Notes: generated by a model not told the origin, from the sequence alone. DNA of 64,000 nt from Limisphaerales bacterium (GCA_044226545.1 JBGAGW010000009.1:24438-88437); one strand, 5' to 3'. Positions 19,901 to 53,864 are shown, counted from the first letter of the stretch. Program-made: numbers and translations.

Positions 19901-20423
19901 CTTGAACGATGTAGGCGAACAAATCAAGGAACTGGCCTCCGAAGTGCACAAGATTTCCTATCGCTTGCATCCCGCCAAACTTGATCAACTCGGTCTCGTT
20001 GCGGCTTCGCGCAGTTTTTGCCGCGAACTCGAGCAACAAACCGGAATCAAAGTGGAGTTCGTTCACGCGGATGTCCCACGCAAACTCCCGGAAGATGTGG
20101 CGCTCTGCGTCTATAGGGTGATGCAGGAGGCCTTGCAAAATATGATCCGGCACAGCCGAAGTCCGGAAGCCAAGGTTCATCTGCAATTCCACGGCGGCGA
20201 TTTGAGCATGCTAATTTCGGATAACGGAAAAGGCTTCGATCTGGACGTTGTCCGGCGGAAGGGTGGCTTGGGCCTGATTAGCATGAATGAACGTGTGCGG
20301 CTGGTGAATGGCACGTTTAAAATCGAATCTGATGTCGGCTCCGGCACGCGGATTACCGTCAAGGTGCCTCTTGCGCTAAACCCGGCGCACCGGTTGGAAC
20401 GACAGCCGGATCTCGGCATTTAA
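16995..20423 (+). CDS. Sensor histidine kinase: beta-propeller repeats, Y_Y_Y, PAS, HisKA_3/HATPase
   Basis: DGYLWFGTFNGLVRFDG repeats; ERRRIARELHD; DNGKGF, GLGL..M.ER; start 16977 or 16995. Confidence 0.93.
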   Translation: MSAISGCPSWAGLLLFAVMLSFGHPYASERASLQTEWLTRTWEAEDGLPENSATAMAQTKDGYLWFGTFNGLVRFDGTKFKVFNPQNSPGLPSGGIVNLHLDRGGRLWVSTLEGIVVQEGNKWRNWGTKEQLVRTFTERPNGDLLLTMFDGAVFEFRDGKFERLPDPPGEKKFGYFGSVDDKGIWWVVQHGFVGHWSGSNWIRRISIPKMASSETGCAQARDGGLWLLLGKELRKYKDGAEVARFAVPEVAGSIWTLFEDRSGTIWISTADNGLFQVSPGAPVRNWTITSGLPAQGVRFVYEDRESNLWVGTSGGGLTRLRPKYFRSFGRDSGLSELVIHSVSAARGGGAWIGSYGKGLFRLRDGEIRNTPIVGARPASSFVQSVLEDRSGRLWVGTFGGGLYRLNHDKTDVFESDVTAGSNVIALYESPRGPIWVSGGSGVARFDGDKFIAFTERENAPRNIRCFVEDRKGSVWMSNGEEVFRFDEGTFRKVQENETAIRGVSCLKEGSEGTIWLGSLDRGLLAWREGALPALATVNVRDGFPLQNVFGIEADQQGCFWITSNRGIVRVLESQLLAVLSGKKSPVECQFFDLTDGLPTIQCASGFQPVVSAGQKGDIWIATVKGITGIDSASYHPKGRAPQTRIQELGYSTKDQASSRPGAVRVLEPFDTPVRIPAGSHGLEFRYSALNFSAPEKVRYQVKLGSVSNMGEWEDAENRTEMIYQSLVPGDYTFSVRAWTGDGITDETEATLAFTVLPFFWETSGFRMVAATMLVALGWLGARYRIRSAETLQQTEKRMALAADLAHLGMWQWEIPQDRVWLTRTTRETFQFPLDTVGAQAFLERIRSLDRERVNDAFEHAMSFGASHLTFRLRPPDGPTRWITASVLVDFDRHQKPIRMIGVCMDVTERRNAEESARELSGRLIHAQEDERRRIARELHDDLNQRLAVLSVEIALLRQANDAAEKREQRLNDVGEQIKELASEVHKISYRLHPAKLDQLGLVAASRSFCRELEQQTGIKVEFVHADVPRKLPEDVALCVYRVMQEALQNMIRHSRSPEAKVHLQFHGGDLSMLISDNGKGFDLDVVRRKGGLGLISMNERVRLVNGTFKIESDVGSGTRITVKVPLALNPAHRLERQPDLGI

Positions 20424-22318
20424 AAGGGACTTCCCACATTCGTCACTCCATAAAGGCGGAAGAAAGTACGCGAGTTGGTGCTGCTCGAGTTGGTGATGGT
20501 CAGTATATTTGAAGTCCCGTTATTTGTCGTTGTTTGCGTGGCAACGCTCCAGACGGTGTTTGTGCTGAGCAGATTCGTTGTGAATTGCAGATAAAGATTA
20601 GGGTAGCCTGCCGGCCACAAGATTGAAACGGAGTTGGTTTGTCGCGAAACCGAAAGACTGTTGAGAACGCTTGCTGGAATGTCGCGTACCGCGGTCTCGT
20701 ATGCGCCAATATCGCAAGCATCCAGGCGGTTTGTGCCGCGTTGATCCAGCGGCGGGCAAAAATCTGCCACACCGCGATTGATCGCCGGGCTGTTCGTGGC
20801 AATCGCCATCGTTTGTGTCGGTCCGCCATTGCTCGCCAGTCCGCTCAAAAGCGGATTGGTTAAGCGCAAGCTCGTGGTGCTCGTGAGCAATGGATTCAGG
20901 TCTGTGCTCAAATTTCCGCCACGATCGGTCACCGTTCCACCTACGGTCACCTTCGAATTGGCCAAAATGTTATTGGCGATAATTACGGTGCCACTGCTGC
21001 CATAGACCGCGCCGCCGCTCGTCGGTCCGGTATCGCCGTTGGCCCCATTGGAACTGATCCCACCTCCCGTTCCGCCTGCGCCTCCCGTCCCGCCGGTCGT
21101 CACATTGTCTGAGAAAGTGCAGTTCACAACCACGGCGTTTCCCGACAGGCTCTCGATGGCACCACCCAGGGCGCTTCCCCCTTCGCCACCATCGCCTCCA
21201 CTGCCACCGAATCCCGAGGTGCCTCCCGCGCCGCCCACACCGCCGTTGCCACCCTTCGCGGAATTAGAAAAGAATGTTGAATTCGTGACCCAAAGGTGCC
21301 CGCTGCTAAAGATCGCACCGCCCGAAGCGTCGCCCCCATCACGACCGGCCTGAGCGCTGCGGCTCAAAATCCCGGGATTGCCTGCGAGGCCATTTGCAGA
21401 GTTCGCATTGTTCCCGAAAAACGTCGAGCTGTTGACGCTTATGTCCGCGTTTTCTCCGGAAATTGCTCCGCCGACGCCTTCGCCGGGCTTCCCTGGGTCT
21501 CCCGGAAAACCGAGAAGACCAGTCCCAGTGCCTCCTGCGCCTGCGGCGGAGCCCGTGGCGTTGTTCGTTGTAAATGTGTTCGCGAAGACCGTCACGCTTC
21601 CTCCTCTCGAGTAGATCGCAGCGCCGCCGGCGGAACCGCCATCGCCACCTCGTCCCCCATTTCCACTGAAATTTCCTCCGGTGCCACCCGCTCCGCCGGT
21701 CCCGCCCGTCACGCTGTTGCCCACAAACACCACGTTTGAGAGAACGATCTGGCCCCCGTTGTTGTAAATTCCACCTCCCGCCGCATCTCCGCCAGACTCT
21801 CCATCTTCACTTCGATTCGTGCCCGCAAGGCCGGTGACGCCGACGACGCTGTTTGCCTCAAATCGCCCATCAAGAATCGTAACAATCCCGCCGTTGTTGT
21901 ACAGACCGCCGCCCGCCGTTTCCGCAATTCCGCCGTCGTTGAAATTCGTCTCTGTGTGGCGTCCGCTAAAAAAGTAAATATTCCGCAGGGTGACACGCAC
22001 TCCCTGTTTCACAATCATGATCCGCGTGAGGCTTTGGCCACTGAGCAGGACCGCTTGCGTGGCGATCAACGACAGATCGTGAGCGACTACGAGCGGTTCA
22101 CTCAGCTTGATGATGGGATTTGCCACATTCGTTCCGCAGTCCCCGAACTGGTAAATTCCACCCTGCCCAACCGCCGCTTGCAGAGCGCCCTCAGTGCAAA
22201 GGTTCAGCAGGTTGGTAGTTTGCGCGCCGGTGGTGACGCCCAAAAAAAGAAGAAGCAGCACGGCCCAATACCGTGAAATCGCTGGCCGATCTGTTGCAGG
22301 GATGATTTTCTCCGCCAT
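20420..22318 (-). CDS. Secreted Gly-rich beta-helix/choice-of-anchor-Q-like protein with C-terminal FFR domain
   Basis: GGAI/NSTF..N repeats; LASNGGPTQTMA..SPAI..DQRG..CDIGAYE; signal peptide after Met 22318. Confidence 0.85.
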   Translation of the reverse strand: MAEKIIPATDRPAISRYWAVLLLLFLGVTTGAQTTNLLNLCTEGALQAAVGQGGIYQFGDCGTNVANPIIKLSEPLVVAHDLSLIATQAVLLSGQSLTRIMIVKQGVRVTLRNIYFFSGRHTETNFNDGGIAETAGGGLYNNGGIVTILDGRFEANSVVGVTGLAGTNRSEDGESGGDAAGGGIYNNGGQIVLSNVVFVGNSVTGGTGGAGGTGGNFSGNGGRGGDGGSAGGAAIYSRGGSVTVFANTFTTNNATGSAAGAGGTGTGLLGFPGDPGKPGEGVGGAISGENADISVNSSTFFGNNANSANGLAGNPGILSRSAQAGRDGGDASGGAIFSSGHLWVTNSTFFSNSAKGGNGGVGGAGGTSGFGGSGGDGGEGGSALGGAIESLSGNAVVVNCTFSDNVTTGGTGGAGGTGGGISSNGANGDTGPTSGGAVYGSSGTVIIANNILANSKVTVGGTVTDRGGNLSTDLNPLLTSTTSLRLTNPLLSGLASNGGPTQTMAIATNSPAINRGVADFCPPLDQRGTNRLDACDIGAYETAVRDIPASVLNSLSVSRQTNSVSILWPAGYPNLYLQFTTNLLSTNTVWSVATQTTTNNGTSNILTITNSSSTNSRTFFRLYGVTNVGSPF

Positions 22319-22648
22319 GACAATCCCGCTATCCAACGTGAACTCGCATCGACTGTCAAACAAGCGGCGCGCAAAAAAGTTGCGCCATGTTGCGCAATCC
22401 CCGGACGCGCGGCGCGGAATCTCTTTGATTTCTTGTTCGCGCCTATCTGGAGCTAAACGCGACCAAGGAGGGCCGCTAGAAAGCAAGGAGCGTGCTCTTA
22501 TCAGTTATTCGTTCTTTCCGACTTTTCAGGCACGCCTCGGAGCAGAGTGGATTATCCAACTTTGTTACGATGCGCTCAGGGCGAGCCTTGCCCGATTCTC
22601 ATACCTGTTTCCGTTGTTCGGTGGGAGGGCGCAAGGCTAGTTTGACGC

Positions 22649-22747
22649 ATGAAGAAAGAAGCGCCTATGAACAATTGGAATGAGGCAGAATGGTTCGCGG
22701 AGTGGCTCAAGCTCGCGCGCAACGAAGGAAATTTGAAAGGCAATTAA
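22649..22747 (+). CDS. Small Trp-rich ORF (32 aa) coupled to the TPR gene
   Basis: MKKEAPMNNWNEAEWFAEWLKLARNEGNLKGN; TAA overlaps the AAGGAG SD of the next gene; promoter-like boxes upstream. Confidence 0.45.
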   Translation: MKKEAPMNNWNEAEWFAEWLKLARNEGNLKGN

Positions 22748-22756
22748 GGAGATCGC

Positions 22757-23305
22757 ATGAACCCTTTGACACAGGCAGAACGCTTCCAGATCGAGGCCGC
22801 GGAAGGCTGGTTGATGCTGGGAAATCCGCAGGAGGCACACGAAGAACTGGAGAAGATCCAGGGAGAAGCAGCCTATCACCCGACGGTTCTCTCGATGCGC
22901 TGGCAGGTTTACGCCGCAGCCGGTTGGTGGGAAGCGGCGTTTGTTGTGTCAAAGGCGTTATGCGAGTTGGCGCCGCAGTCGCCTGCCGCCTGGATTTGCC
23001 AGGCGAATACGATGCGCCATTACAAGGGTGTTGTCGAAGCCTGGGGCGTCTTACTAGGAGTGGTTAAGAAGTTTCCGGCCGACGCGGTCATGCGCTACAA
23101 CCTGGCTTGCTACGCTTCTCAGATGGGCTTGTTGGAAGAGTCATGTGGGTGGCTTGTGCAGGCCTTCGAGCTCGAGGAAAGCACTCAGCTTAAACTAGCC
23201 GCTGTTTACGACCCGGACCTGCAACCACTCTGGGAAAAAATTGGCCGCGATAAACTCTTCGAGGTAACAGGGCAGAGGGTGGAAGAACTGGCCGCCCCTA
23301 AATAG
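22757..23305 (+). CDS. TPR-like protein
   Basis: AAEGWLMLG, YNLACY, DPDL.PLW; AAGGAG RBS. Confidence 0.85.
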   Translation: MNPLTQAERFQIEAAEGWLMLGNPQEAHEELEKIQGEAAYHPTVLSMRWQVYAAAGWWEAAFVVSKALCELAPQSPAAWICQANTMRHYKGVVEAWGVLLGVVKKFPADAVMRYNLACYASQMGLLEESCGWLVQAFELEESTQLKLAAVYDPDLQPLWEKIGRDKLFEVTGQRVEELAAPK

Positions 23306-23395
23306 CCAAGAACTTGTGGTTCGGCGACGCGACGCGGAAGAGTCAAGGCACTCTTCCGCGTTGAGCTTTGGGCGCGTCTGCGTTTACATCCATAG

Positions 23396-25263: not shown

Positions 25264-25278
25264 TTAAACGGTCCTAAT

Positions 25279-25346
25279 CGTAATCTTGATCCTACTCCTA
25301 ATCCTGTATTCCGGCCGTATAAATTAGGATTAGGATCGAGATTACG
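25279..25346. repeat. Hexamer-based inverted repeat (TAATCC-like units)
   Basis: CGTAATCTTGATCCTACTCCTAAT vs ATTAGGATTAGGATCGAGATTACG, 22/24 complementary. Confidence 0.8.
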
Positions 25347-25376
25347 GTCAGGAGAGGGGCGGCGGAAAGCGAATTG

Positions 25377-31638: not shown

Positions 31639-32886
31639 ATGAAAAGAGCATTTCTTGTTTTCGCGTTTTTCCTGTTCACCATCACGCCCAGGGCCCACAA
31701 CGTCATCTGGTGGGAAAATCCGGACGGGCTTGAGGGGTTATTCGCGCCGCCCATTCAATTCGAAATTAACACTGATGATTTGTTTGAAGACGACCCCCCG
31801 TTTGTGGTCGTTCAGATTGTTCCTGATTACAGCTTTTTTGGCCCAATCCCTTTTTACGAGCCGTGCACCGTCTATGTGACGGTGGATAAGCCGGATCCCC
31901 TTCTTGGCATTGATATCGTGCCAAATGGTGGATTTTTTGACTTGAAACTTCCGCTCCCAGGGATTTTGCCGGCACTGGAGGTCGATGTGGTCGTCTACTT
32001 GAAAGATTTGCCTCCGGACGGCAAACCGATTCACACTTTTATCAGCGGCGAGTGGCATGCGAGCGGCCAACCTGACCCGATGGAGTGTACCGCCACCAAT
32101 CCCAACCCATTTATCGTTCCCATCGATATTTCCCTGACCCCTTTGGCCTGGTTTATCGCCTTCTCTCAAGAAACCCAGACCGTGACCATCGACACAAAAA
32201 AGGAGGTCGCTTTACAATGTGCGGATAGTGTAAATGGCCCCTACATTAACATTGGAATGGGTCACCTCTTCTCGCTTCCTCTGGACGGCGTGACAAAGTT
32301 TTTTCGTGGCATAAAAAGAAGTGCAGGCGGTCTGGTTGGAACGATTACTGACCCCACAGGCAAACCACAAACCGGCGTAACCGTTGATTTGCCCGTCGGT
32401 GGCCGAAATACCGCCTCCGACACGAGCGGTCGCTACACCACGAAGCTGTTTCCTTTCGGCGACAGTATCGTCCAGTTTCTCAAAACAATTAAGATTCCCG
32501 ATGGGAACGGTGGAAACAGCACTAACATCGCGACCATCGATATTCTCGTGCCGACGATAAAATCCTACGGCACGCTGAACTTCAAAGTCGATTTCCAAGT
32601 GATCAAAATCCCCGATTGTCCCTGCACACCCTGGGCCTCGATCGGCTTCGGAACCCTCGATAATACCCAGACACCTATTTATTACTCAGGTGGCGCTAAC
32701 GGGGCCAAAGGCGCCGACTGTGGTCCCATCGATGTCACCGTCACGCCGCCGAACGGAAGGGCTTTCAAAATACGGCCGGGCTCCGGGAAACATCAGAACA
32801 CCGGCGCGAATCCAGCTCCGGGCGTATGGACTGTCACCACGACGGTTTGCGGCCAAAGCAAATCTGCGACCATCACATTCCCGTAA
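31639..32886 (+). CDS. Secreted multidomain hypothetical protein (carboxypeptidase-regulatory-like domain)
   Basis: Signal peptide; GTITDPTGKPQTGVTV..SDTSGRY; Cys-rich C-terminus. Confidence 0.75.
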   Translation: MKRAFLVFAFFLFTITPRAHNVIWWENPDGLEGLFAPPIQFEINTDDLFEDDPPFVVVQIVPDYSFFGPIPFYEPCTVYVTVDKPDPLLGIDIVPNGGFFDLKLPLPGILPALEVDVVVYLKDLPPDGKPIHTFISGEWHASGQPDPMECTATNPNPFIVPIDISLTPLAWFIAFSQETQTVTIDTKKEVALQCADSVNGPYINIGMGHLFSLPLDGVTKFFRGIKRSAGGLVGTITDPTGKPQTGVTVDLPVGGRNTASDTSGRYTTKLFPFGDSIVQFLKTIKIPDGNGGNSTNIATIDILVPTIKSYGTLNFKVDFQVIKIPDCPCTPWASIGFGTLDNTQTPIYYSGGANGAKGADCGPIDVTVTPPNGRAFKIRPGSGKHQNTGANPAPGVWTVTTTVCGQSKSATITFP

Positions 32887-35670: not shown

Positions 35671-37848
35671 TCACGGCATCGTGATGGTCGCGAGGTTTGA
35701 ATAGGCCGTATTTACGGTCCCATTGTAAGCGCGCACGCGAAAAGAATAGGTGCTCCGGCTGCTGGTTCCGTTCACGACAATACTCGTGCTTCCGGTTGGC
35801 AAAGTCCCGAGTTGGTACCAGGTGCCGGAGGTCGAGTATTCCAATTTAAATCCCTGTTCGTCTGAGGTGCGGTCTGTCCACCGCAATTGAACCTGGGTCG
35901 AGGAGTTCGCGGTCGCAGTCAAGTTCGCCGGAACCGGAGCGGCAGGTTGAACCGCGATGTACGCGGAATCCGGACTCGTGCCGCTCGAATTTGAGGCGCG
36001 CATCGCGTAGTAATAGGAACCTCCGGCAGCAACGCTCTGTGAGTATGTGGTCGATGTGACACCCGTGGCTACGGCCGCCCACGGTCCTGAAGGCGAGGGC
36101 GCGCGATCCACCACGTAGCTGGTTGCGCCTGTGGCGGCCGCCCAATTCACGGTCACCGTTGCATTACCGGCTACCGTTGAAAGTGAAGCGCTGGAGGTTA
36201 CGCCGGTGGGGGCGGATGGAGCTGAAATCAACGGCGTCGCCGAAACTTGAGCGGAGTTCGCACTGCTGCCGCCGCTGTTGCTTGCGGCGACCAGGTAATA
36301 GTAAGTCACACCTGCGGTCACGGCAGTGTCGGTGTAACCGGGCGTCGCCAGGTTGCTCAACGTGGTGTAGGGGCCTCCAGAAACTGTGGCACGCTTCACG
36401 TTGTAAGATGTGGCGTTTGCCACAGCAGCCCATGAAAGAGTGACTTTGCCAATTCCTGCCACGGCTGAGAGGCCGGCCGGCGCGGCGGGTGGCTGTACGA
36501 CGGTCGTTGCGGGAGTGATGATTGTGCTGAGATCGAGGCGTCCTCCGGTGCTGGTTTTTCCAGCCAGGGACGGCGTCGGGGCAACGGCACCGAGAATAGC
36601 CGTGCGAATAGCTTGTGCGCTTGCGCCGGGGTGCGTGGACGCATAAAGCGCCACCGCTCCAGTGACGTGCGGCGTAGCCATCGACGTGCCGGACATGTAA
36701 CCGTAGCTGCTCGTCGGATAGGTCGAAAGAATTTGCACGCCCGGCGCGCCGAGATGGACCTTGCTCGCTCCGTAGTTGGAGAAGCTTGCAAGTGCACCGT
36801 TGCTGTCGATCGCTGCAACCGCGAGTACCGCGTTAAAACTGGCCGCCGCTTCCGTGGCCGTGGCAACGGTCGTATCAATGTTCGAGGGGTAATTGGCGGT
36901 TGTATCGTTATTCAAGCCGCTGTTTCCAGCAGCCGCTACGAAGAGAATACCTGCTTTAGCCGCGCGAATGATCGCCGAGTGCAGCGCTTGCGAATAACCA
37001 CTGCCGCCCCAGGAAGCGCTAAGGGCGACAAGGTTCAGACTGTGGCGCTTCTTCAGATCGATGAAATAATCGATTGCCTCCACCGCATCGAGAGTGCTGC
37101 CGCCGCTGGTGCCCATGAATTTTCCGGAGATGATCGTCACGTTCCAGTTCACACCCGCCACGCCCGCAGCGTTGCCGCCCACGGCTCCGATTGTCCCGGC
37201 GACGTGAGTGCCGTGATCGTCGTTTGCGGCATCGAACACCTGATTATTGTTCGCCAGAAAGTTCCAGCCGTTAACATCGTCAACATAGCCGTTTCCATCG
37301 TTGTCAATGCCATCCGGTGGATCGAAAGGGTTGGACCACATATTCGCTGCGAGATCGGGATGGTTTACCTGGATTCCTTCGTCAATGACGCCGACGTAAA
37401 CGCTTTTGCTTCCGGTGTAGCCGGCCTGCCAGGCTTCCGCGGCCTGGCTGCCGTAGTTATTTGCCGGAGCGGAAAGATTCCCATAGACGCCCCACATATT
37501 CCCGGCGGTGAAGCATGGATCGTTCGAAGTGGCCTGGTGGGTGTAGTGGACGTTTTCTTCGGCGAATTCGACCGCGCGATGTTTGCGAAGTTGTTGCAAC
37601 GTTTCTTCGACCGAACCTTCAGAATCCGCGAGGGTTAAGCCGCTGTGATTGCGTTCTGCCATCGGTGCGGTCAGCAAATGACGCTTGGGCTTGAGGCGCC
37701 CATGATTAACGACGTCGATAATGTCCGAATCCGTGGCGTCGGCCTTGAATTGGACAATGATTTCACCGCCATTCTTGGCGTGAGACGAGAGAACTGTGCA
37801 GAACGCCAGGAAAGCTACAACAGTAGTACGCGTGAGCGCGGGGTACAT
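35671..37848 (-). CDS. Secreted S8 subtilase with fibronectin type III domains
   Basis: VIDEG, HGTHVAG, AAAGN, GTSMATPH; three FN3-like C-terminal repeats. Confidence 0.95.
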   Translation of the reverse strand: MYPALTRTTVVAFLAFCTVLSSHAKNGGEIIVQFKADATDSDIIDVVNHGRLKPKRHLLTAPMAERNHSGLTLADSEGSVEETLQQLRKHRAVEFAEENVHYTHQATSNDPCFTAGNMWGVYGNLSAPANNYGSQAAEAWQAGYTGSKSVYVGVIDEGIQVNHPDLAANMWSNPFDPPDGIDNDGNGYVDDVNGWNFLANNNQVFDAANDDHGTHVAGTIGAVGGNAAGVAGVNWNVTIISGKFMGTSGGSTLDAVEAIDYFIDLKKRHSLNLVALSASWGGSGYSQALHSAIIRAAKAGILFVAAAGNSGLNNDTTANYPSNIDTTVATATEAAASFNAVLAVAAIDSNGALASFSNYGASKVHLGAPGVQILSTYPTSSYGYMSGTSMATPHVTGAVALYASTHPGASAQAIRTAILGAVAPTPSLAGKTSTGGRLDLSTIITPATTVVQPPAAPAGLSAVAGIGKVTLSWAAVANATSYNVKRATVSGGPYTTLSNLATPGYTDTAVTAGVTYYYLVAASNSGGSSANSAQVSATPLISAPSAPTGVTSSASLSTVAGNATVTVNWAAATGATSYVVDRAPSPSGPWAAVATGVTSTTYSQSVAAGGSYYYAMRASNSSGTSPDSAYIAVQPAAPVPANLTATANSSTQVQLRWTDRTSDEQGFKLEYSTSGTWYQLGTLPTGSTSIVVNGTSSRSTYSFRVRAYNGTVNTAYSNLATITMP

Positions 37849-37917
37849 GCGAATATTCAATTTGATTTGTTGCCTCTAACTGCGGGAGCTTGAACCGCGA
37901 ATAAGACGCGAGAAAAG

Positions 37918-38435: not shown

Positions 38436-39638
38436 TTATTTAAGTTTTAGAATTGCGGGAATGGGGATCGCGTCTTTCTTGGCGGCTTCCTCACGACGCA
38501 TTTGTAAGTTCGTGAGAGTAGTGGTGGTTTCACCGCGCTTCTTCTTGATGTTGTCGATACCGCGCGTCGTTGGCCCGCGTTTGCTGCAGTAAAGCATGGC
38601 GCTTTCTTCGGTAATGAGGCCTTGTTCGTAAGCGTCGAGGCAGGCCTGGTCGAACGTGCGCCAACCGAAGGTGTAGTTCGCTTCCGTGATTTCGTAGAAA
38701 GTTTTGCCTTCGCCTTCGCCCATGATGATCGAATCGCGAATACGCAGATTGCTCCCCATGATTTCCAGGAGCGCCTGGCGACCCCCACCGATTTTGGGGG
38801 AGAGACGCTGGCTGACAATCCACCGAATGGTGTCGGCGAGGCGAAGACGGATCTGCTCCTGCTCCTCCTGTTCGAACATACCGAGAATACGATTGATCGT
38901 TTGGCCGGCATCGATCGTGTGCAGGGTGCTGACGACGAGGTGGCCTGTTTCCGCCGCGCTGAGGCCGATTTCGACCGTCTCGCGATCACGCATTTCGCCG
39001 ACCAGAATCACTTTAGGCGCCTGACGCAATGCCGCGCGAAGACCGGAGGCGAAGCTGTCGAAGTCCGTGCCCATTTCTCGCTGGTTGAATGTGGCCCTTT
39101 TTTGGGAGTGCACGAATTCGACCGGGTCCTCGAGGGTGATAATGTGAATCGATTTAGTTTCGTTGATCTGATTAAGCAACGCGGCCAGCGTGGTGGATTT
39201 ACCGGAACCAGTGGCACCCGTGACGAGGATCAATCCGGTCTTCTCTTTTGCCACCTGTTCGAAAACGGGAGGCATTTTCAGATCCGCGAGCGTCGGGATG
39301 CGCGTGTTCAGTTTGCGAAGGACGATGGAGTAGTTGCCGCGTTGCGAGAAGATGTTAACGCGGAAGCGGGCTTTGTTTGGAACGCTGTAAGAGCAGTCGC
39401 ATGAACCGGTCCGAAGCAGGTCTTCGTTTAAACGGCGGCTGCCACCGACAAGATTTAGTGCGATCTGTTCGGTTTGAAATGGGGTGAGCTTTTCGATGTT
39501 TGGCTCAACGTTGACCGGAACAAGTTGTCCGGAGCTTTCGACCTGGAGCGGTTTGTCGACAGTGATGTTAAGATCAGATACGTCGTTGTTCGACTCCAAC
39601 ATCGTACTGAAAATGTAATCGAGTTCTTTGCGCCTCAT
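38436..39638 (-). CDS. pilU: PilT/PilU family retraction ATPase
   Basis: GATGSGKST, TLEDPVEF, ALRQAPKVILVGEMRD, GHLVVSTLH. Confidence 0.9.
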   Translation of the reverse strand: MRRKELDYIFSTMLESNNDVSDLNITVDKPLQVESSGQLVPVNVEPNIEKLTPFQTEQIALNLVGGSRRLNEDLLRTGSCDCSYSVPNKARFRVNIFSQRGNYSIVLRKLNTRIPTLADLKMPPVFEQVAKEKTGLILVTGATGSGKSTTLAALLNQINETKSIHIITLEDPVEFVHSQKRATFNQREMGTDFDSFASGLRAALRQAPKVILVGEMRDRETVEIGLSAAETGHLVVSTLHTIDAGQTINRILGMFEQEEQEQIRLRLADTIRWIVSQRLSPKIGGGRQALLEIMGSNLRIRDSIIMGEGEGKTFYEITEANYTFGWRTFDQACLDAYEQGLITEESAMLYCSKRGPTTRGIDNIKKKRGETTTTLTNLQMRREEAAKKDAIPIPAILKLK

Positions 39639-39870: not shown

Positions 39871-40962
39871 TCAATCTTCGTCCTCCGGCGGGTGCGCGAG
39901 GAACGGGCGGAATTTCTTTTTGTCCAGGCATTTGTCGTAGGCCTCTTCAGGTGAAATTCGCTTCATGCGCAGATGCTCCATGATCGCGTCGTCGAGCGGT
40001 TGATTGCCGAGCTTCTTGCCGACTTGGATCATACCGGGGATCTGGTGCGTTTTGCCTTCGCGCACCAGGTTCGCGACAGCCGTGGTGAACACGAGAATTT
40101 CAAGCGCGGCCACGCGGCCTTTCTTATCGATGCGTTTGAAAAGGTTTTGCGCAACGACCCCTTTGAGCGCTTCGGAAAGGGTCGCGCGGATTTTGTTTTG
40201 TTGATCGGCGGGGAAAACGTCGATCACACGGTCGACGGTTTTGGCCGCGCTTTGGGTGTGGAGTGTGCCGAAGACCAGGTGACCGGTGCTCGCCGCTGTG
40301 AGGGCGAGCTCGATTGTTTCCAGGTCGCGCATTTCACCGACCAGAATGATGTCCGGATCTTCACGGAGAGCTCCCTTGAGCGCGGAGCCGAATGATTTCG
40401 TGTGAAGCCCCACCTCTCGATGGTTAACGAGACAGTTTTTACTTTCATGCACGAATTCGATCGGGTCCTCCACGGTGAGAATGTGGTCCTTCCGATTTTT
40501 GTTCGCGTAATCGACCATCGCCGCTAGCGTGGTGCTCTTACCGGAACCGGTCGGACCGGTGACAAGCACGAGGCCCTTGTGCAGCATGGAAAATTTTTTT
40601 AGCACCGGCGGGAGCGGCGCATCGAATCGCTCGAAATCTTCGAAAGAAAGAACCTTGGATGGAATTTGACGGAAAACCGCGGAGCAACCGTTCTTCTGAT
40701 TGAAAAAATTCGCACGGAACCGGGACACACCAGGAATTTCGTAACCGAAATCAACGTCCCCGGTTTCTTCGTAAGTTTTGATCTTGTACTCGGGGGTGAT
40801 TTCGTAGAGCATCGCTTTGAGCGCGTCACTTTCGAGGGCGGGATAGTCAACCCTGTGCAGTTCACCATTGATGCGGAGCATGGGGGGGTTACCGCTGGCA
40901 AGGTGCACGTCCGAGGCTTTTTGCTCGAACATCAAATTAAAGAAGGCGTCGATCTTGGCCAT
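39871..40962 (-). CDS. pilT: Type IV pilus retraction ATPase PilT
   Basis: MAKIDAFF start; GPTGSGKST, EDPIE, ALREDPD, AVANLVRE. Confidence 0.95.
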   Translation of the reverse strand: MAKIDAFFNLMFEQKASDVHLASGNPPMLRINGELHRVDYPALESDALKAMLYEITPEYKIKTYEETGDVDFGYEIPGVSRFRANFFNQKNGCSAVFRQIPSKVLSFEDFERFDAPLPPVLKKFSMLHKGLVLVTGPTGSGKSTTLAAMVDYANKNRKDHILTVEDPIEFVHESKNCLVNHREVGLHTKSFGSALKGALREDPDIILVGEMRDLETIELALTAASTGHLVFGTLHTQSAAKTVDRVIDVFPADQQNKIRATLSEALKGVVAQNLFKRIDKKGRVAALEILVFTTAVANLVREGKTHQIPGMIQVGKKLGNQPLDDAIMEHLRMKRISPEEAYDKCLDKKKFRPFLAHPPEDED

Positions 40963-41293
40963 ACTACAATGAGTTATCGGCGGGCGACGCCGAGAGCTAA
41001 ACTTCGGAGAGCAAAGAGCATGCGAGTGGCAAAAATGCGACACGAAGAGGAGAGGGAAGACTGCAACTTTCATTCGACCTGCAGGAATTCACCTGATTCC
41101 AGGAAGAAACAGATCGACTTAGCCACAGGCCCACCGCGACAAAGATTGCGGACTTTGACCTGGAATTGCGAACCAACGAGTTACAGCGGAAAAACATACC
41201 TTCCATCGCAGAAACTTACGTTGAATGTCAGTTTCTCACGCGACAAAACCGGGCACAATCCTGCCCTTCCCATAGCGGATAAGCGCCGTCCAC

Positions 41294-44329: not shown

Positions 44330-45640
44330 ATGCGTTCAATAAAAGTTGCGCTTAAGGGATTGAAGGTCTCTGTTCCACCTGCGCGTTGGAAGTTCTTCAG
44401 TTTGGTCTTTTTTTTCGCTGTCCATGTAATTTTACCGGTCGCAGAGGCCCAAAGCGGTCGAGTTGAGCAGGCAAAGATAACCAGCGACGAGCTGACCAAT
44501 AATCTTTTCGGCGATCCCGCAACTCGGTCGCTTAGCGTCTATCTTCCGCCGAGCTATGATGACGGAAGTGAACGCCGCTATCCGGTCGTTTACGTTCTTC
44601 ACGGATATGGCGGCTCTCCCGCAGATATGGTCAGTGTTATCCGTCCGACCCTGGAGTCAATGACTCGGGCGCGTGTCGTTTCGGAAATGATCATGGTTTT
44701 CGTGGATGGCGGGAACCGCCTTGGCGGCTCCTTTTATTTAAACTCGCCCGTCATTGGCGATTACGAATCGTATATCGCCAAAGATCTCGTGGCGTATGTA
44801 GATGGTCGTTATCGCACGCTCGCCCATCGGGAAAGCCGCGGAATCACCGGCTATTCCATGGGAGGTTGGGGCGCCATGCACCTGAGCCTGAAATTTCCGG
44901 AAACGTTTAGTGTGGTTGTTTCCGAAGCGGGTGTTTATGACGCGAACGGCAAGTTACTGGACGGACTGTGTCGCCAACTGGCCAGCGCCCATCCAACAAA
45001 CCTGACGCAGTTTGGCAAACTGGCTTTTCCGGTAAACGCCGCGCAGGCTCTTCTGGCTGGTTTGCTCCCGAATCCCGAGCGGCCTCAACTGTTTACCGAC
45101 AACCTGTACGATTTGGCAGGCGAGCAAACGGTTGCGAATACCATCGCCCAGCAACAGGCTCGAGAGGGTGATGTGCAACATGGCGATTTAGGGCGGTATC
45201 TGAATAAGACCAACGAGTTGAGGGCTATCAAGATCGTGCACGGAGTCGGCGATGCTGTAGTGGGCGTCAGCGAGGCGCGTGCTTTTTCCAACGCTTTGAC
45301 CACGGCCGGAATCGAGATCGAATATCAGGAGCATGCGGGCGGACACGACTACGTTCCGGGCCTGGCGTTGCCTTTTCTTTCGACAAACCTCGTTGGAGCT
45401 GAACTTTATCTATCCCGCCCTAAACTGGCGGTTGCTAACACGCCGGACGGATTGGCTCTGACCTTCCCCACGCAAAAGGGCGTGACCTATTCCGTAGAAA
45501 CTATTTTGAGTTTGTCAGGTAAGAATTTATGGATAGGCACGGGCGAAAGGGCGGGGGACGGTCAACCAGCAAAGATTTCCCTTCCGTTAGATACCAATGG
45601 CGCATTTTTCCGCGTGCGCAGCGCCAATGCTCCAATGTGA
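44330..45640 (+). CDS. Secreted alpha/beta hydrolase (esterase) with C-terminal FFR domain
   Basis: YLPPSY, YPVVYVLHG, GYSMGG, GGHD. Confidence 0.9.
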   Translation: MRSIKVALKGLKVSVPPARWKFFSLVFFFAVHVILPVAEAQSGRVEQAKITSDELTNNLFGDPATRSLSVYLPPSYDDGSERRYPVVYVLHGYGGSPADMVSVIRPTLESMTRARVVSEMIMVFVDGGNRLGGSFYLNSPVIGDYESYIAKDLVAYVDGRYRTLAHRESRGITGYSMGGWGAMHLSLKFPETFSVVVSEAGVYDANGKLLDGLCRQLASAHPTNLTQFGKLAFPVNAAQALLAGLLPNPERPQLFTDNLYDLAGEQTVANTIAQQQAREGDVQHGDLGRYLNKTNELRAIKIVHGVGDAVVGVSEARAFSNALTTAGIEIEYQEHAGGHDYVPGLALPFLSTNLVGAELYLSRPKLAVANTPDGLALTFPTQKGVTYSVETILSLSGKNLWIGTGERAGDGQPAKISLPLDTNGAFFRVRSANAPM

Positions 45641-46760: not shown

Positions 46761-46777
46761 TGCAGGTCGGAGTTGAA

Positions 46778-47588: not shown

Positions 47589-50093
47589 CTATTCTGCGAT
47601 GACTCGGAAGAATTCCTGCTTCTGCACTCCGATAGTCGGTTGAAGTTTCCACGAGCCGCCCGGTGTGGAATTAGTTTCGATTGAACTCCATGTAGGTAAA
47701 GCAGCGGAGGATTGGAAGATCGCGCGGGTGCGATCTCCGGTGGTGGCGGTGATCACAAGTTTTCCATTGTTGACCTGGTGCGTGAGAATCGTTGGGTTGC
47801 GGTCGTAAACGGCGAAGTTGGGAACGGGGTACGTGCTGGGCGCTCTTCCTACGGTGCGGAACGATCCACCCACGAAAATGAAGGAGTCGGAAAGTGCGAT
47901 GACGCGAGGAGAACTTGGGGTTGCCGGATCCCAATCGTAAGTAAGGGCTGTCTCGGGATTCAGACACGCAAGATTTCTTCGGAAATCGCCACCGATCGAT
48001 TCGAATGCGCCGCCGTAATAGGCGATGGTTTCTGTAGCGGCAATGGCATTTATTCCGGTCGCGGCGGTGGGCAGCGCCGGATCAAACTGCATCAGGGTGT
48101 GTGCCGGGATTTCGTAGAGCGCGCTGTTGCGGAGTCCGACGCCATGAATAGTCGTAAAGGCGCCACCGACATAGAGGCGGTTCCCAACTGTGCAAAGAGC
48201 GGAGACATCGCGGTTCGGGGCGGGATTCCACGCGTCGACCTGAGCATTCGATTCGTTGATTGCCGCGAGTCGCGTGCGGCTTTGCCCGCCTACACTGTTG
48301 AAGTCGCCGCCGATATAGAGAAATCCGGAGGACCGCGCCAATTCAGTAACCCCGGCGGTTCCTCCAAGAATCTTGGCATCAAATGTGGAGGGATCTCCAG
48401 TAGCGGGGTCGATCTTGGCGAGCATACGAACGGCCTGGCTGCGAATATTCGAGAATTCTCCGCCAACGTACAAACGGTCCTCGCCAAAAAGGAGAGCCTT
48501 GATCTCGGCTGCCGCTGTCTTGTTTGTCGCAACGAATTTGAAGTCCGGGCGCAACGCTCCGGTGAGCGGATTCACCGCTACCAGGCCATTGGCGCTGACG
48601 CCGTTGACATTCGTAAAGGCTCCCGCGAGATAAATGTTCGTCGAGGAAGCGGTCATTGCGAGAACGGGCGAAGAGGGCGCTACGCTCCAGGGAAGAACCG
48701 CGCCGGATTGAAGCTGCAGAGCGGCCGCATTGGTCCGCGCCACGCCGCCCAGTGATTGGAAAGATCCGGCACACGCGAGACGGTTGCCGGCAAAAGCAAA
48801 GCAGGTCACGACCGCGTTGTCGCTCGCACCATTATAGAGCGTTCCAAGCGGCGCTTGATCCAGCACTTCCCCAGTCGCCGGATCAACGGCTGCGAGTAAG
48901 GGTTGGTCGTGACTTTGCAAGCGGCCAAAGTTGCCGGAGAGAAGAAGCGCATTATTTGCCATGTGGATAGCAAGGACCTGGCTGCCTGTTCCTTCGATTT
49001 TCAGGTCGAGCGGCAGGACGGAAGCCGTACTTCGACTCACCGCGGCAAACTTGTTTCGATTCTGAATCCCGAGGGAAGTGAAATCGCCGCCTAGGTAGAG
49101 GTTATCGTCCGCAATTTCCAGCGAGCGGACGTTTCCGTTCGGGTTCGGGTTCCAGGTCGTGGCTTGACCCGTGGAAGTTTCGAGAGCGGCGAGGCGATTG
49201 CGCGGCTTGGCGCCCACCGTGGTGAATTGGCCACCCACGTACAAAAGTTCGTCGGCCAGTCGCATGGCAAAAACAGCATTGTCTGCGTTCGGATTCCATG
49301 CGGTTGCTTTGCCGGTTTGGAGGTCGATGGCGGCGACACGGTTCCGGCCTGCCGAACCCACGGCCGTAAAACCGCCGCCCAGGTAAAGAATTTGACCATC
49401 AATCAGCAGGGCGTTTACGCGCCCGGTGACTTGCGGCAAAATGGGTTGGAGTGCGGCGTTCTCCGTGCTCAATGCCGCGATGCCAGACTGTGCTACGCCT
49501 CCAACCTTTGTGAACTGTCCGCCGATGAACAACAGGTCTCCCTGTCGGGCCAGTGCGTAAACGCCCGAACCAGTCAGGACCGGCGCGAAACTGCGATCAA
49601 CGGAAAGGTCAGAAAAAACATGCACGACGTAAGTTACCGGAACGTTCCCAATTTGCGTAAATTCGCCGCCGAGGAACCAACCACCCGATCCGTCCGGCTC
49701 CAGAACGTAAATAGTTCCATTCACGCGAGGAAAACGATTGAGGTAATCCCCGGTTGCGAGGTCGAATAGAGCCGCTGGACCGGTTTGTGGCCCTACATAG
49801 GAGAAGTCACCGCCCAGATAAACGGTGTCGTTCTGAATGGTAATGGCGTTAACGGGGCCGTCGGTAATCCAAAAATTATCGCGGGGAAAAGGCGAGGGCT
49901 GACCGTGAAGCGCGGCTGAACAGATGAAAAGCGCGGCAGCGACACACAGCAATTGGAGGAGGTGGGAGTGGAGGCGAAACGATTGTTGTCCTCCCTGAAC
50001 AAGGCAATTGATCCCATGAGACTCTAACGTTCTATTGCGCAGCATAAATCCTAGTCCTTTCAAACGGCGCTTTGCCGCTCGCTGTAGATTCAT
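47589..50093 (-). CDS. Secreted beta-propeller repeat protein (LYVGG.F repeats) with C-terminal FFR domain
   Basis: Many LYVGGxFT..G...R..LAA..WNP repeats; signal peptide ending ALHG; start uncertain. Confidence 0.87.
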   Translation of the reverse strand: MNLQRAAKRRLKGLGFMLRNRTLESHGINCLVQGGQQSFRLHSHLLQLLCVAAALFICSAALHGQPSPFPRDNFWITDGPVNAITIQNDTVYLGGDFSYVGPQTGPAALFDLATGDYLNRFPRVNGTIYVLEPDGSGGWFLGGEFTQIGNVPVTYVVHVFSDLSVDRSFAPVLTGSGVYALARQGDLLFIGGQFTKVGGVAQSGIAALSTENAALQPILPQVTGRVNALLIDGQILYLGGGFTAVGSAGRNRVAAIDLQTGKATAWNPNADNAVFAMRLADELLYVGGQFTTVGAKPRNRLAALETSTGQATTWNPNPNGNVRSLEIADDNLYLGGDFTSLGIQNRNKFAAVSRSTASVLPLDLKIEGTGSQVLAIHMANNALLLSGNFGRLQSHDQPLLAAVDPATGEVLDQAPLGTLYNGASDNAVVTCFAFAGNRLACAGSFQSLGGVARTNAAALQLQSGAVLPWSVAPSSPVLAMTASSTNIYLAGAFTNVNGVSANGLVAVNPLTGALRPDFKFVATNKTAAAEIKALLFGEDRLYVGGEFSNIRSQAVRMLAKIDPATGDPSTFDAKILGGTAGVTELARSSGFLYIGGDFNSVGGQSRTRLAAINESNAQVDAWNPAPNRDVSALCTVGNRLYVGGAFTTIHGVGLRNSALYEIPAHTLMQFDPALPTAATGINAIAATETIAYYGGAFESIGGDFRRNLACLNPETALTYDWDPATPSSPRVIALSDSFIFVGGSFRTVGRAPSTYPVPNFAVYDRNPTILTHQVNNGKLVITATTGDRTRAIFQSSAALPTWSSIETNSTPGGSWKLQPTIGVQKQEFFRVIAE

Positions 50094-50740
50094 TTATCAC
50101 CAGGCTCCGGGTGCGCGCTCGGCGATGATTGCTTAACGCTACACATAAGTTGGCTTGAATGATCGAGGCCCCGGAAGCCAACAGGAATGCTACGGGTGTC
50201 AATGTCTTTATGACGACTAAATAAATTCCGTACACTGCTTGCGCATTTTGCCTAATTCCGCCTTGCCTAAAACGTTGTCAGACTGAAACAAGATTTAATC
50301 GTGACGCTAAGCTAATAGCTCTCGCTCTATACGTTGAGAGTGGGTGGGGGGGGCTGTCTTATAGTTGGCAGACTCCCTTGCGTGTGTGTACATTAATAAA
50401 ATAGGGCTGTATCTATTAGGCTAGCATCTGTTGTGTTATGTGCAGTAATTGCTATCTAGAACGCAATATCCGGTGGCAATAACAAACGTAAGCAATTTTG
50501 ACAGAACTAAAGATATGTCATTTATAAATAAAAATGAGTGGCGGGATGTTTAATAGCGTTAGTTGTGCCCTCGCAAGTGCTTACGCGATTTTGGAATGTT
50601 ATGTTCAGGACTTGGCTCGGCGGCTGCTTTTCTGTGGTGGGGTGATAAAGTCCCGGTCTCGCTGTGATGAAATGGGATTCGCAAAAGATTACGAGGTCAC
50701 CCTCAAGAGCAAGTAACAATTCAAACATACGGTTAAATAT

Positions 50741-51451
50741 ATGAGAAATCGGAAGAACCTAATGGCCTCCAGCGGAGGAAAACGCCTGTTGGCGGTGACG
50801 ATTGGTGCATTGACCCTCTCGGCGGCGCAGGTCGCGAAGGCAGAGCTCGTTGTCTACCAGGATCTGCCCACCAACGATTCCCAGAAGCAATCGTTTCATA
50901 ATGCAAACGGCCCGATTTTGGCGGACGATTTCGTTCCAAGCCAGGGCGGCTTCATTTCACGTGTTGATTGGTGGGGCACAGCCGCCCAATCCGATCAATG
51001 GGAGTTGGCCTTCCATACTGATGATCCGAACACGCATCAACCGAATCTCGACGACGTAACGATTGGCTCTTTGAAAAAGGTGTTCGTTACCGCGGTTGGG
51101 ACTGCCGAACCCGGCTTGCCAGCGGGCCTGTTGCATTACAGTGCCACGGGTGACTTTATCAACGTGGCTGGCGGGACCGAGTACTGGCTCACAGTAGCGA
51201 ACAGTGCGGCGGGTTGGAATTGGGCGGACGCGCTCAATGGCCCTACCATCGGAAGCGAGAATTACAACGCGCATACCGCTACCGGACCTTTGGCTCTCGA
51301 TGGCGGGCCTCACGGCGGTCCTTGGACGGACGTTCACACGGATCTGGCTTTTAGTCTGTCGGTCCCGGACGGCGGGATGACTGCCGCATTGCTGGCGCTG
51401 GCTCTGGGCTCGATGAGCTTTCTGCCTATCCGAAAAATGAGTGCCCGTTAG
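50741..51451 (+). CDS. VPDSG-CTERM (PEP-CTERM variant) exosortase substrate
   Basis: Signal peptide; C-terminal VPDGG + TM + basic tail (IRKMSAR). Confidence 0.88.
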   Translation: MRNRKNLMASSGGKRLLAVTIGALTLSAAQVAKAELVVYQDLPTNDSQKQSFHNANGPILADDFVPSQGGFISRVDWWGTAAQSDQWELAFHTDDPNTHQPNLDDVTIGSLKKVFVTAVGTAEPGLPAGLLHYSATGDFINVAGGTEYWLTVANSAAGWNWADALNGPTIGSENYNAHTATGPLALDGGPHGGPWTDVHTDLAFSLSVPDGGMTAALLALALGSMSFLPIRKMSAR

Positions 51452-51772
51452 AAGATACAGGCGATTCGCCTTTATCTCACGAATAGCGAGAGCGCCAAGG
51501 GGCGGATTTTGCATCCCTTGGCGCTGAATCTCGCTAGAGAGGGCTCCGATAAGACTTTATCTTCGCCGCGGAAGGGCAAGTTTATTTACAGAGGATTCTT
51601 AACAGCCCAATTCTAACAACCGCTAGCCGGTTGAAGAATTGATCGTTAAAGAGCGGGCCCGGAGAGGCGGTGGAGGGATAGTTTCCTCACCCTCCACCGC
51701 TATTGCCAGTTCCCACTCACATGAGTGTGCAGGCAGTGAGCAATGAGGTCCCGCCGTGTCAGGCAGGCAATT

Positions 51773-52213
51773 TCAAGCAGAGGGATTTCCTTCGCGAAGC
51801 AGTGGCGGAAGAGTAATCTGCATACTCCGTCCAGAGGTCGGCGACAGCGGTGTTGACCGGAACACATTCCTGACAAGCGTCACGAGATCCTCCAACTCGA
51901 ACGGTTTTTGGACCCAGGCGCTTAGACGCATCCATTCATAGTCGTGAGCGGCAAAATGGTTTGTACTTCCCGAGGTTACGATAACGGGCAGATCGGAACC
52001 GTCCAAGCGCAGCCGGGCGACAAGCTCCAGACCGGTTAAGCGCGGCATATCATTATCCGTGATCAAAAGATCGAACGGGGAGAGTCTCGCTGCGTCGAGT
52101 GCCGCCTGGCCATCACCGACAGGAAGAACAAAGTAGCCGACGGCTCGAAGAGTCCGGACGGACGTTTCGCGCAACGGCTCATTGTCTTCCGCGTAGAGAA
52201 TTTTCTTCGTCAT
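51773..52213 (-). CDS. Single-domain response regulator
   Basis: YAEDN, LITDNDMP, QKPF. Confidence 0.9.
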   Translation of the reverse strand: MTKKILYAEDNEPLRETSVRTLRAVGYFVLPVGDGQAALDAARLSPFDLLITDNDMPRLTGLELVARLRLDGSDLPVIVTSGSTNHFAAHDYEWMRLSAWVQKPFELEDLVTLVRNVFRSTPLSPTSGRSMQITLPPLLREGNPSA

Positions 52214-52243
52214 ATCATCGCAGTGTGTGATTTCAGGAGTAGG

Positions 52244-52684
52244 TTACCGACTTCTCGCCAGCAGTCCGGGAGTGATTCCATGCGCCTGTTTAAATGCGCG
52301 CGAGAAGTGCGAGAGCTGCTTAAAGCCGAGATGGTAGGCCGCACTTTTGACCGACTCTCCCGCGCATATGAGTCGATACGCTTCGACCAGTCGAATCTGA
52401 TTTAGCCAGAGGCTAAGAGTTGTCCGATACGTTTGGCGGAAGCGACGCTGCAAAGTTCGCAGTGAGACATTACAAAGCCGGGCAATTCGGGCTGGTCGAT
52501 ATCCGGCCTGGCAGGGCAGCTTCTCCCAGGACAGCTCGACTGGCGATGCAACGGCGCCTTGAGAAGAGCCGGAGGGTAGAAGGATTGCATAATGAAGGGG
52601 AGCTGTCAGGTGGCTGATTTGCTCCGGCCACGGAGTTGCAAGATTGGCTCGCGCGCTGATTTGCATTCCGGGGATAATGCACAT
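52244..52684 (-). CDS. Stand-alone AraC-type HTH regulator
   Basis: VSLRTLQRRF, LGFKQLSHFSRAFK..G.TP; start uncertain. Confidence 0.85.
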   Translation of the reverse strand: MCIIPGMQISARANLATPWPEQISHLTAPLHYAILLPSGSSQGAVASPVELSWEKLPCQAGYRPARIARLCNVSLRTLQRRFRQTYRTTLSLWLNQIRLVEAYRLICAGESVKSAAYHLGFKQLSHFSRAFKQAHGITPGLLARSR

Positions 52685-52919
52685 GCTCGACGGTCAGTGC
52701 ATTAGGAATTGGCGCGTATTGCCACTAAGTGAAATCTTTAGGGCCTCGTTAATTCGGAATGCGCTTCGCTGGGCCTGCATCTATGAACACTCCGTTTGTT
52801 GGCGAACGAAGATCGAAGCGAGGAACGTTCGAAGGCCAAACCGATGATGATGCCAATGTATTTGGCACGGTCACCGAGAATGCGGTCTCTCGCCGCGTTT
52901 AAATGAAACGGGCATTAAA

Positions 52920-53864
52920 TCATGGGCTGAAAACAGCGGGCGCCTCCGTTATGATCACTCTGTAGAATTTTCGTGGTTCGCCTGGATAAATTGCGTCCGT
53001 TTGGCAGAGAATGCCGCCATCTCCCTTGAAGAGGTTCGTGACGACTGGGACCCAAGTGTCAGAGGTGAGTGCCGAAAGGTATTGGAATTGATACCATGGA
53101 CCAGGCACTGTTTTAAAGCAAAGTTCAACCTGGGAAACACGGATGCCTAGAACTGGCGAAGGAATGACCGCGCCGGATTCGATCGCGTAAACGTTTTGCA
53201 CCTCCGTCGCGGTTAAAGCTCGATTATAAATCCTAACCTGGTCAATCCGTCCATGGAATGGCCGCCCCCAGAGAGGACTGAAACCGATCGTAAACGGCGC
53301 GGAGTTCTCGCCGAGGATGCATTGGATCGGAAAGCTCACTTCGTTCGTGCCGTTGATATATAGGTCCATAGTCTCTGCCCCTTTATAGATCGCGGCGACG
53401 TGATACCACACCTCGCTTTGTAGGATGGTCGTTGAACCGGGATAACCGCCGCCCCCGGCACCCCCGCAGGGATAAAATCGCACGCGATTGTCCGTCTCGA
53501 CCTCAAGGTCGTAATCGTTAGCCCCCGCAGATCGGCGTGCGATGTAGTTGTTTCCGGTGGCGGAGGGCAGCGCATCCAATCGGATCCAAGCCATGAGCGT
53601 GCTTTGCTCGCGCTGATAAAGGCTGTTCGCGATTTCGACGTAGCCGCCGGAACCGTCGAATAAAAAGGCCTGACCTGCGGCGCCGGACGCGTAAGTCACG
53701 TTTCCTCGCAGGGTCCCGTTATTTGTGCTCGCCGAGTCCGCGGCATTCCCTTCCGCGGCCCACAGGCCAATCAGTCCTGGAGGTTCGCTGACCTGAGCTT
53801 CGGAGCGAACGGAAACCGTGAGCACCACAAACAGGGCTGCGCCGAGAGAGCGAAGGTTGATCAT
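52920..53864 (-). CDS. Secreted LamG-like protein with C-terminal FYR domain
   Basis: WYHVAA, LYING, F.G.ID.VRIYNRAL; signal peptide. Confidence 0.9.
   Translation of the reverse strand: MINLRSLGAALFVVLTVSVRSEAQVSEPPGLIGLWAAEGNAADSASTNNGTLRGNVTYASGAAGQAFLFDGSGGYVEIANSLYQREQSTLMAWIRLDALPSATGNNYIARRSAGANDYDLEVETDNRVRFYPCGGAGGGGYPGSTTILQSEVWYHVAAIYKGAETMDLYINGTNEVSFPIQCILGENSAPFTIGFSPLWGRPFHGRIDQVRIYNRALTATEVQNVYAIESGAVIPSPVLGIRVSQVELCFKTVPGPWYQFQYLSALTSDTWVPVVTNLFKGDGGILCQTDAIYPGEPRKFYRVIITEAPAVFSP

Follow-up and report, generated by a model that had tools for sequence, protein, structure and literature searches.

A six-strand, fibronectin type III-related module on exported proteins of Verrucomicrobiota, mostly C-terminal and possibly a tether

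The genome of a Limisphaerales bacterium (GCA_044226545.1) enabled us to investigate a small module that is shared by otherwise unrelated exported proteins and lies in most cases at their extreme C-terminus. The window, that is, the whole stretch of DNA analyzed, comprises 64,000 nucleotides (JBGAGW010000009.1:24438-88437), and positions given without a contig name are counted from its first letter. Briefly, the module is a six-strand beta-sandwich of 55-70 aa (strands A, B, C, C', E, and F), is related to fibronectin type III (fn3) domains and ends after strand F, and it constitutes a very large uncatalogued domain family of Verrucomicrobiota. On the balance of its positions, carriers, and predicted fold, we tentatively read it as a position-tolerant tethering or binding module.

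The size of the family was established by profile searches. A starting profile of four C-terminal tails from the window was run against 35,859 stop-to-stop open reading frames (ORFs) of at least 80 aa from the 6.93-Mb genome that carries the window (97.6% complete). This first profile found 11 domains at an independent E-value (i-E) ≤ 1e-3, nearly all of them at ORF ends; upon iteration to convergence, the set comprised 150 domains in 149 ORFs. With the ORFs reversed, the first and final profiles gave 0 matches, against 11 and 152 on the real ORFs. The module is carried by 145 of the 5,665 rough gene calls (2.6%). An alignment of 43 copies (four of the window and 39 from elsewhere in the genome) has a mean column identity of 23%, with an invariant Trp and an invariant Arg, the latter in the terminal motif. 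The consensus runs from a hydrophobic strand ending in Phe or Trp, through Gly-x-x-Tyr-x-(hydrophobic)-Glu/Gln and Leu-x4-Trp, to a variable hairpin and the terminal motif [FY][FY]R[VLI]. Neither Pfam nor NCBIfam holds the family, as judged from the five window proteins singled out by an earlier note on this DNA and, for Pfam, also from the 43 copies; the tails of the window proteins had no match in either collection even at E ≤ 1. No description of the module surfaced among the entries returned by a full-text literature search.

The earlier note had claimed that four secreted proteins of the window end in one shared tail and that a fifth protein holds an internal copy. The genes and segments concerned are as follows.

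52920..53864, minus strand: gene of the secreted LamG (Laminin_G_3) protein; PF13385 at residues 70-223 (E 9e-29), with a signal-peptide-like N-terminus.
52923..53162, minus strand: LamG tail module, residues 235-314 of 314; ends F-Y-R-V plus 11 residues; top-scoring copy of the window.
44330-45640, plus strand: esterase gene; PF00756 at residues 66-252.
45413..45637, plus strand: esterase tail module; ends F-F-R-V-R-S-A-N-A-P-M.
47589-50093, minus strand: gene of the beta-propeller protein; DUF5122/Rax2 propeller repeats upstream of the tail.
47592..47822, minus strand: beta-propeller tail module; ends F-F-R-V-I-A-E.
20423..20653, minus strand: diverged module copy at the C-terminus of the Gly-rich choice-of-anchor-Q protein, whose gene ends at 20420.
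32140..32320, plus strand: internal segment of the protein at 31639, the claimed fifth copy; not a member by sequence.

The coordinates of the named C-terminal segments were correct in that note, with three of the genes on the minus strand. Signal-peptide-like N-termini were read directly from the translations of all five proteins, and the N-terminal parts of the four tail carriers are unrelated to each other (PF00756, DUF5122/Rax2, Laminin_G_3, and NF041518 by Pfam and NCBIfam). The shared tail stands without qualification for three of the four: with the converged genome profile, the LamG, esterase, and propeller tails score 41.3, 29.2, and 24.0 bits, respectively, and are clear members. The Gly-rich tail scores 10.5 bits (i-E 0.06 against its own contig) and is assigned to the family as a diverged member, because its top non-self matches in phmmer are two family members (E 0.009 and 0.018) and a clear copy (i-E ≤ 1e-3) is found 2-3 aa from the C-terminus in 6 of the 16 homologues examined. 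The closest clade of the Gly-rich protein has a degenerate copy followed by an extension of 14-60 aa. The protein matches NF041518 (choice-of-anchor-Q) at residues 544-598, and its form in the public collection has 632 aa, which corresponds to a start at Met57 (about 22318). The claimed fifth copy, inside the 31639 protein, has to be dropped from the list, having no profile match, no phmmer match to any family member, and no invariant Trp.

Position within the carriers is strongly biased. In the genome, 119 of the 150 copies end at most 12 residues from the stop codon; the aromatic-aromatic-Arg motif is present in 117 of these, of which 90 stop 4-6 residues past the Arg, which means that in most terminal carriers the protein stops where strand F stops. 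The bias extends to other classes of the phylum, as the stop follows within 12 residues for 27 of 31 matches in five such genomes (from the best 30 loci). The other 31 copies of the genome have more than 12 residues after them and comprise about 18 N-terminal copies, about 10 internal copies, which lie in large proteins, and 3 that are near-terminal or fragments. The N-terminal copies stand directly behind a signal-peptide-like segment and are followed by a short Pro/Ser/Thr-rich linker and then by the catalytic or binding part. According to a Pfam listing of 19 non-C-terminal carriers, 7 of them without a Pfam family, the parts downstream of N-terminal copies include FGE-sulfatase (three proteins), GDSL lipase, AhpC-TSA, pentapeptide repeats, DUF3160, and DUF1800. 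Furthermore, a library of 1.84 billion representative proteins contains 75,822 proteins that match at E ≤ 1e-3 and 5,632 that match at E ≤ 1e-10, and all of the top 150 by summed score have 2 to 45 matched stretches. Where the sequences of such arrays were read, the copies are arranged head-to-tail with a period of ~75 aa, each unit closing with the motif and a Pro-rich linker that begins 3-4 residues after it; in metagenomic proteins, the arrays reach ~40 copies.

The fold was examined with predicted structures. An AlphaFold2 model of the LamG tail, made from the 43-copy alignment, reached a predicted local distance difference test score (pLDDT) of 90.5 and a predicted template modeling score of 0.74, with strands at residues 4-8, 11-17, 23-29, 51-57, and 66-72 and short bridges at the Trp. 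For a two-copy protein taken from the public library, the model (pLDDT 92.4) has six strands per copy, a 6-residue linker, and no seventh strand. Foldseek found nothing in the PDB at E ≤ 1e-3 for the LamG tail model. VIA-align gave a best Z of 7.3; its top matches are nearly all fn3 domains at Z 5.8-7.3, and the top 50 are mostly fn3, aligned over the first 61-75 residues of the target at a root-mean-square deviation of 2.1-3.7. The models thus show an fn3-type beta-sandwich as the predicted fold; the Z values are middling and therefore speak for a shared fold, without proving homology.

The window itself offers a canonical fn3 domain for comparison, at the C-terminus of a secreted protease.

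35671-37860, minus strand: S8 subtilase gene, the in-window comparison, with a canonical fn3 domain at its C-terminus.
35674..35943, minus strand: canonical fn3 domain of the S8 subtilase; PF00041 at residues 644-722 of 729, E 2.4e-11.

This domain has the canonical seven strands and ends 7 residues before the stop, so the secreted proteases of this genome bear tails of both kinds, the classical fn3 domain and the six-strand module. Aligned by hhalign with the module profile (E 1.8e-4, probability 49%, 64 columns), the subtilase domain places the terminal motif of the module on its strand-F pattern and extends 16 residues past the aligned end, through the FG loop and strand G. The [FY][FY]R[VLI] motif is the tyrosine-corner region of strand F. 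Strand G is missing in every context, whether the copy is terminal, N-terminal, or tandem, and the six-strand form is intrinsic to the module, not a truncation by the stop codon, because the two-copy model has no seventh strand and the canonical fn3 runs on for 16 residues. Donation of a strand G by neighboring sequence was considered and rejected, as N-terminal and tandem copies pass directly into Pro-rich linkers. PF00041 matched none of the five window proteins at E ≤ 1 and none of the 43 module copies; the only fn3-type Pfam match among these copies was fn3_5 on one of them (E 0.14).

The carriers are predominantly exported proteins with very different bodies. A strict, home-made rule, not a trained predictor, assigns a signal-peptide-like start to 111 of the 149 carriers; among other ORFs with a length of 250 aa or more, it does so for 1,459 of 4,723. 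Several of the carriers that fail the rule have obvious signal peptides by eye. Twenty carriers drawn at random from the 141 outside the contig of the window included M4, S8, and M10 proteases, LamG/Ig proteins, Lamin-tail (LTD)/CotH giants, a propeller, a beta-lactamase-fold enzyme, and PKD, CARDB, and ASH Ig arrays, while 5 of the 20 had no Pfam family. Because the cargo is so diverse, a substrate common to the carriers is unlikely. One carrier with LamG and Ig domains (L072, contig C25:145179-148538) also matches the receptor-binding lectin-like family PF07953 (E 1.7e-7) within its LamG-type region, a match that probably reflects the shared concanavalin-like fold.

The module is restricted to a lineage and patchy within it. 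Among same-order relatives, 39 of 40 have 27-144 matches, roughly in proportion to genome size. The remaining order member (G021; 2.6 Mb, 94% complete) has no copy, compared with ~36 in relatives with equally large genomes. When the phylum was sampled evenly, matches at E ≤ 1e-5 were obtained in 61 of 151 genomes, with 14 of 15 genomes in some families and 0 of 24 or 0 of 14 in others. Public records with close relatives of one copy are labeled as the Verrucomicrobia phylum in 25 of 29 cases, and the closest ESM Atlas clusters have no common Pfam family and are mostly from Verrucomicrobiota. The view that this is a portable, lineage-restricted module on heterogeneous signal-peptide proteins, which the earlier note had put forward together with a profile scan, a C-terminal bias, and a co-occurrence with signal peptides as ways to examine it, is borne out by these searches.

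Considering position, cargo, and fold together, we lean towards a tethering function, a reading that we hold as possible rather than probable. The module would be a portable, non-catalytic, terminal unit of Sec-exported proteins that attaches diverse cargo, such as proteases, esterases, and lectin-like or adhesin-like proteins, to one shared partner or ligand. This partner would most plausibly be a component of the cell's own envelope or matrix, and the exoproteins would in this way stay with the cell. Such a module could work at the N-terminus, at the C-terminus, or in tandem, like SLH, LysM, and dockerin modules, and would not be a cleaved C-terminal export signal. Several points weigh against a tether. 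No ligand, partner, or cohesin-like candidate was identified among the genes searched, where neighbor enrichment is weak. The tight ending 4-6 residues past the Arg also fits a signal that is read from the C-terminus. The absence from the order member G021 is all-or-none, and all-or-none loss is typical of tags that depend on dedicated machinery. Domains of the fn3-like kind are often mere spacers, and the excess of exported carriers was counted with the home-made rule described above. A complex prediction for two copies of the module, run without controls, scored 0.00 and speaks neither for nor against homotypic binding.

The module may instead be a passive structural domain, an fn3-like cap or spacer that stabilizes or spaces exported multidomain proteins and has no specific partner, which we regard as fairly unlikely. 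Such a role would agree with the fn3-like fold, with long tandem arrays that resemble the stalk domains of giant adhesins, with the internal copies in giant proteins, and with a search in which no partner was found. However, a spacer at the terminus spaces nothing, yet 119 of the 150 copies are terminal, many small enzymes have exactly one copy, and orthologues retain the module over long distances. The Trp and the Arg are invariant over 43 copies as divergent as 23% mean column identity, and an Arg on strand F that points outward, as strand alternation alone would have it, would exceed what the core of the fold needs.

The other explanation of similar standing takes the module for a dedicated signal for sorting or export, which in Verrucomicrobiota would be read by an outer-membrane translocon or an attachment enzyme that has yet to be discovered, with the N-terminal and tandem copies being secondary; this, too, seems to us rather unlikely. 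The strongest point for the idea, which in its sorting or anchoring form goes back to the earlier note, is the positional equivalence seen on the esterase. Among 20 homologues of the window esterase, nine carry the module (48-57% identity; one of them scores weakly and is followed by a 56-aa extension), four from other phyla have in its place the type IX secretion system (T9SS) type A C-terminal domain (PF18962), and seven have no tail or other domains. Two of the PF18962-bearing homologues (41-43% identity) are almost of the same length as the window esterase. Therefore, the module occupies in Verrucomicrobia the place that a known secretion or anchoring tag takes elsewhere, and to this extent the analogy drawn in the earlier note holds. 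The extreme C-terminal bias (119/150, with 90/117 ending 4-6 aa after the Arg), the share of carriers among gene calls (~2.6%, 145/5,665) and their enrichment in signal peptides, and the complete loss of the module from one same-order genome would all be expected of such a signal. Choice-of-anchor domains, one of which is found in a window carrier, would, by their NCBIfam naming, precede alternative sorting signals.

The analogy fails on the copies that are not terminal. A T9SS-type signal requires a strictly C-terminal position, while 31 of the 150 copies have more than 12 residues after them; the ~18 N-terminal and ~10 internal copies and the tandem arrays of up to ~40 units in related proteins argue against an obligate C-terminal sorting signal. 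The degenerate copies with 14-60 aa extensions in the clade of the Gly-rich protein point in the same direction. Copies that are N-terminal, internal, tandem, or degenerate with an extension are not known for T9SS C-terminal domains, PEP-CTERM tails, or LPXTG signals.

The search for machinery was also against a dedicated export signal, as no conserved neighboring gene and no dedicated machinery emerged from the neighbor comparison or from the searches for secretin, SprA, and PF18962. PF18962 and TIGR04183 matched neither the window proteins (Pfam and NCBIfam, E ≤ 1) nor the 43 copies. In the whole genome, PF18962 (Por_Secre_tail) had no match, and the control genomes of that search likewise had none; the SprA model TIGR04189 had 0 matches in the genome and 0 in 14 control genomes. 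Secretin (PF00263) is found in 147 of the 151 phylum genomes, including all 61 with the module, and the copy-free order member has three secretin matches; being near-universal and also present in that genome, secretin does not discriminate between module-bearing and module-free genomes and is compatible with the module but uninformative as its machinery. An unusually long secretin ORF of 4,118 aa lies outside the window (contig C12:7180-19533, plus strand); dozens of repeated, N-domain-like units of ~80 aa precede its terminal Pfam Secretin domain (173.8 bits). When the 505 genes within two positions of carriers were compared with all 5,665 gene calls, the most enriched groups were two of kinase-like (Ser/Thr) paralogues (8/19 and 9/25), prepilin-type N-methylation (DUF1559-like) proteins (11/43), and extracytoplasmic function (ECF) sigma factors (5/16), with uncorrected p values of 1e-4 to 1e-2 over about 500 tests, and we do not count them as a finding.

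A second kind of C-terminal tag is encoded in the window, where the earlier note had rightly recognized a VPDSG-CTERM substrate.

50741..51451, plus strand: small exported protein whose PEP-CTERM-class tail, as read from the translation, consists of S-V-P-D-G-G, a hydrophobic helix, and a basic end.

Searched by the motif V-P-[DE]-[ST]-G, which misses the V-P-D-G-G variant of this very protein, PEP-CTERM-type tails number ~12 genome-wide, against ~150 copies of the module. The module tails do not have the PEP-CTERM architecture, since they end 4-6 residues after the Arg and contain no hydrophobic stretch.

In a more specific version, Verrucomicrobiota would have an undiscovered pathway for surface display or secretion that uses the module as its address tag, with the open edge of strand F at the free C-terminus being read by a dedicated outer-membrane receptor, translocon, or attachment enzyme. 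We consider this version decidedly doubtful. Its corollaries, that the module does for a phylum without T9SS what the T9SS C-terminal domain does elsewhere and that the non-terminal copies are leftovers or secondary uses, are to be held with the same degree of doubt.

Least probable, and in our judgement very unlikely, is a carbohydrate-binding module (CBM) that binds environmental polysaccharide and targets enzymes to their substrate: the central strands do match the CBM32/discoidin profile of a Paenibacillus glucanase/chitosanase (PDB 2rv9 and 4zxe; E 9e-6, ~50 columns, confined to chain residues 56-107), and Pfam families of the F5_F8_type_C group gave sub-threshold matches on 5 and 2 of the 43 members, but no full-length Discoidin/CBM32 match (PF00754, PF22633) was found on these copies (best E 0.0086 for the two and 0.018 for the five), a 140-aa jelly roll is matched in part only and the predicted fold is an fn3-type sandwich, the cargo consists mainly of proteases and lectin-like, adhesin-like, or unknown proteins, not of glycoside hydrolases, and one polysaccharide common to ~150 unrelated proteins is unlikely.

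The rest of the window is an unrelated mix of genes, including efflux pump components, two-component regulators, PilT-like ATPases, and tRNA modification genes. Two adjacent ATPases of the T2SSE family (PilT/PilB-like, 400 aa each) are encoded at 38436-39638 and 39871-41073, both on the minus strand, and no link between them and the module was found.

Curating the family would annotate a large share of the exoproteins of Verrucomicrobia (~2.6% of the genes of this genome and 75,822 protein clusters). The analysis adds to the picture the counts of N-terminal and internal copies, the tandem arrays, the intrinsic six-strand form, the in-window fn3 comparison, and the negative results for secretin and neighboring genes. 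With N-terminal, internal, and tandem copies and an intrinsic six-strand fold, the question moves from the translocon that might read the module to the target that the module might bind. If the module does tether or sort its carriers, it would help to explain how an abundant phylum of soil and freshwater without T9SS keeps proteases, esterases, and adhesins at its surface, and it would provide a handle for surface display in Verrucomicrobia.

Compared with known systems, the module shares with PEP-CTERM and VPDSG-CTERM tails the role of a C-terminal tag on exported proteins, and both kinds coexist in the genome; those tails consist of a short motif, a transmembrane helix, and a basic tail, whereas the module is a folded, soluble domain. 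With Discoidin/CBM32 domains it has in common a local pattern over strands B to C' (Tyr, alternating hydrophobics, Ser, Asp, and Trp), but only ~50 columns of the eight-strand, 140-aa jelly roll match, and the predicted topology is fn3-like. The T9SS C-terminal domain is closer in its use, being likewise a small Ig-like beta-sandwich in which many unrelated signal-peptide proteins end, with tens to more than 100 carriers per genome and the same place on homologous esterases; the module differs from it in having six strands instead of seven, in the lack of a sequence match, and in its N-terminal, internal, and tandem occurrence. In architecture the module is nearest to fn3 (PF00041), with which it shares the A-B-E and C'-C-F sheets of the beta-sandwich, the aromatic residue of strand B, the Tyr of strand C, and the tyrosine-corner motif of strand F. 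It departs from fn3 by the missing strand G and a length of 55-70 aa compared with about 90, by the invariant Trp after strand C and the invariant Arg in strand F, and by its overwhelmingly terminal position, and no member reaches the PF00041 model. Dockerin, SLH, and LysM modules differ from it in fold and sequence, which are unrelated, and it may nevertheless be their counterpart in use, as a non-catalytic unit found on many unrelated exoproteins, mostly terminal and tolerated at either end or in tandem.

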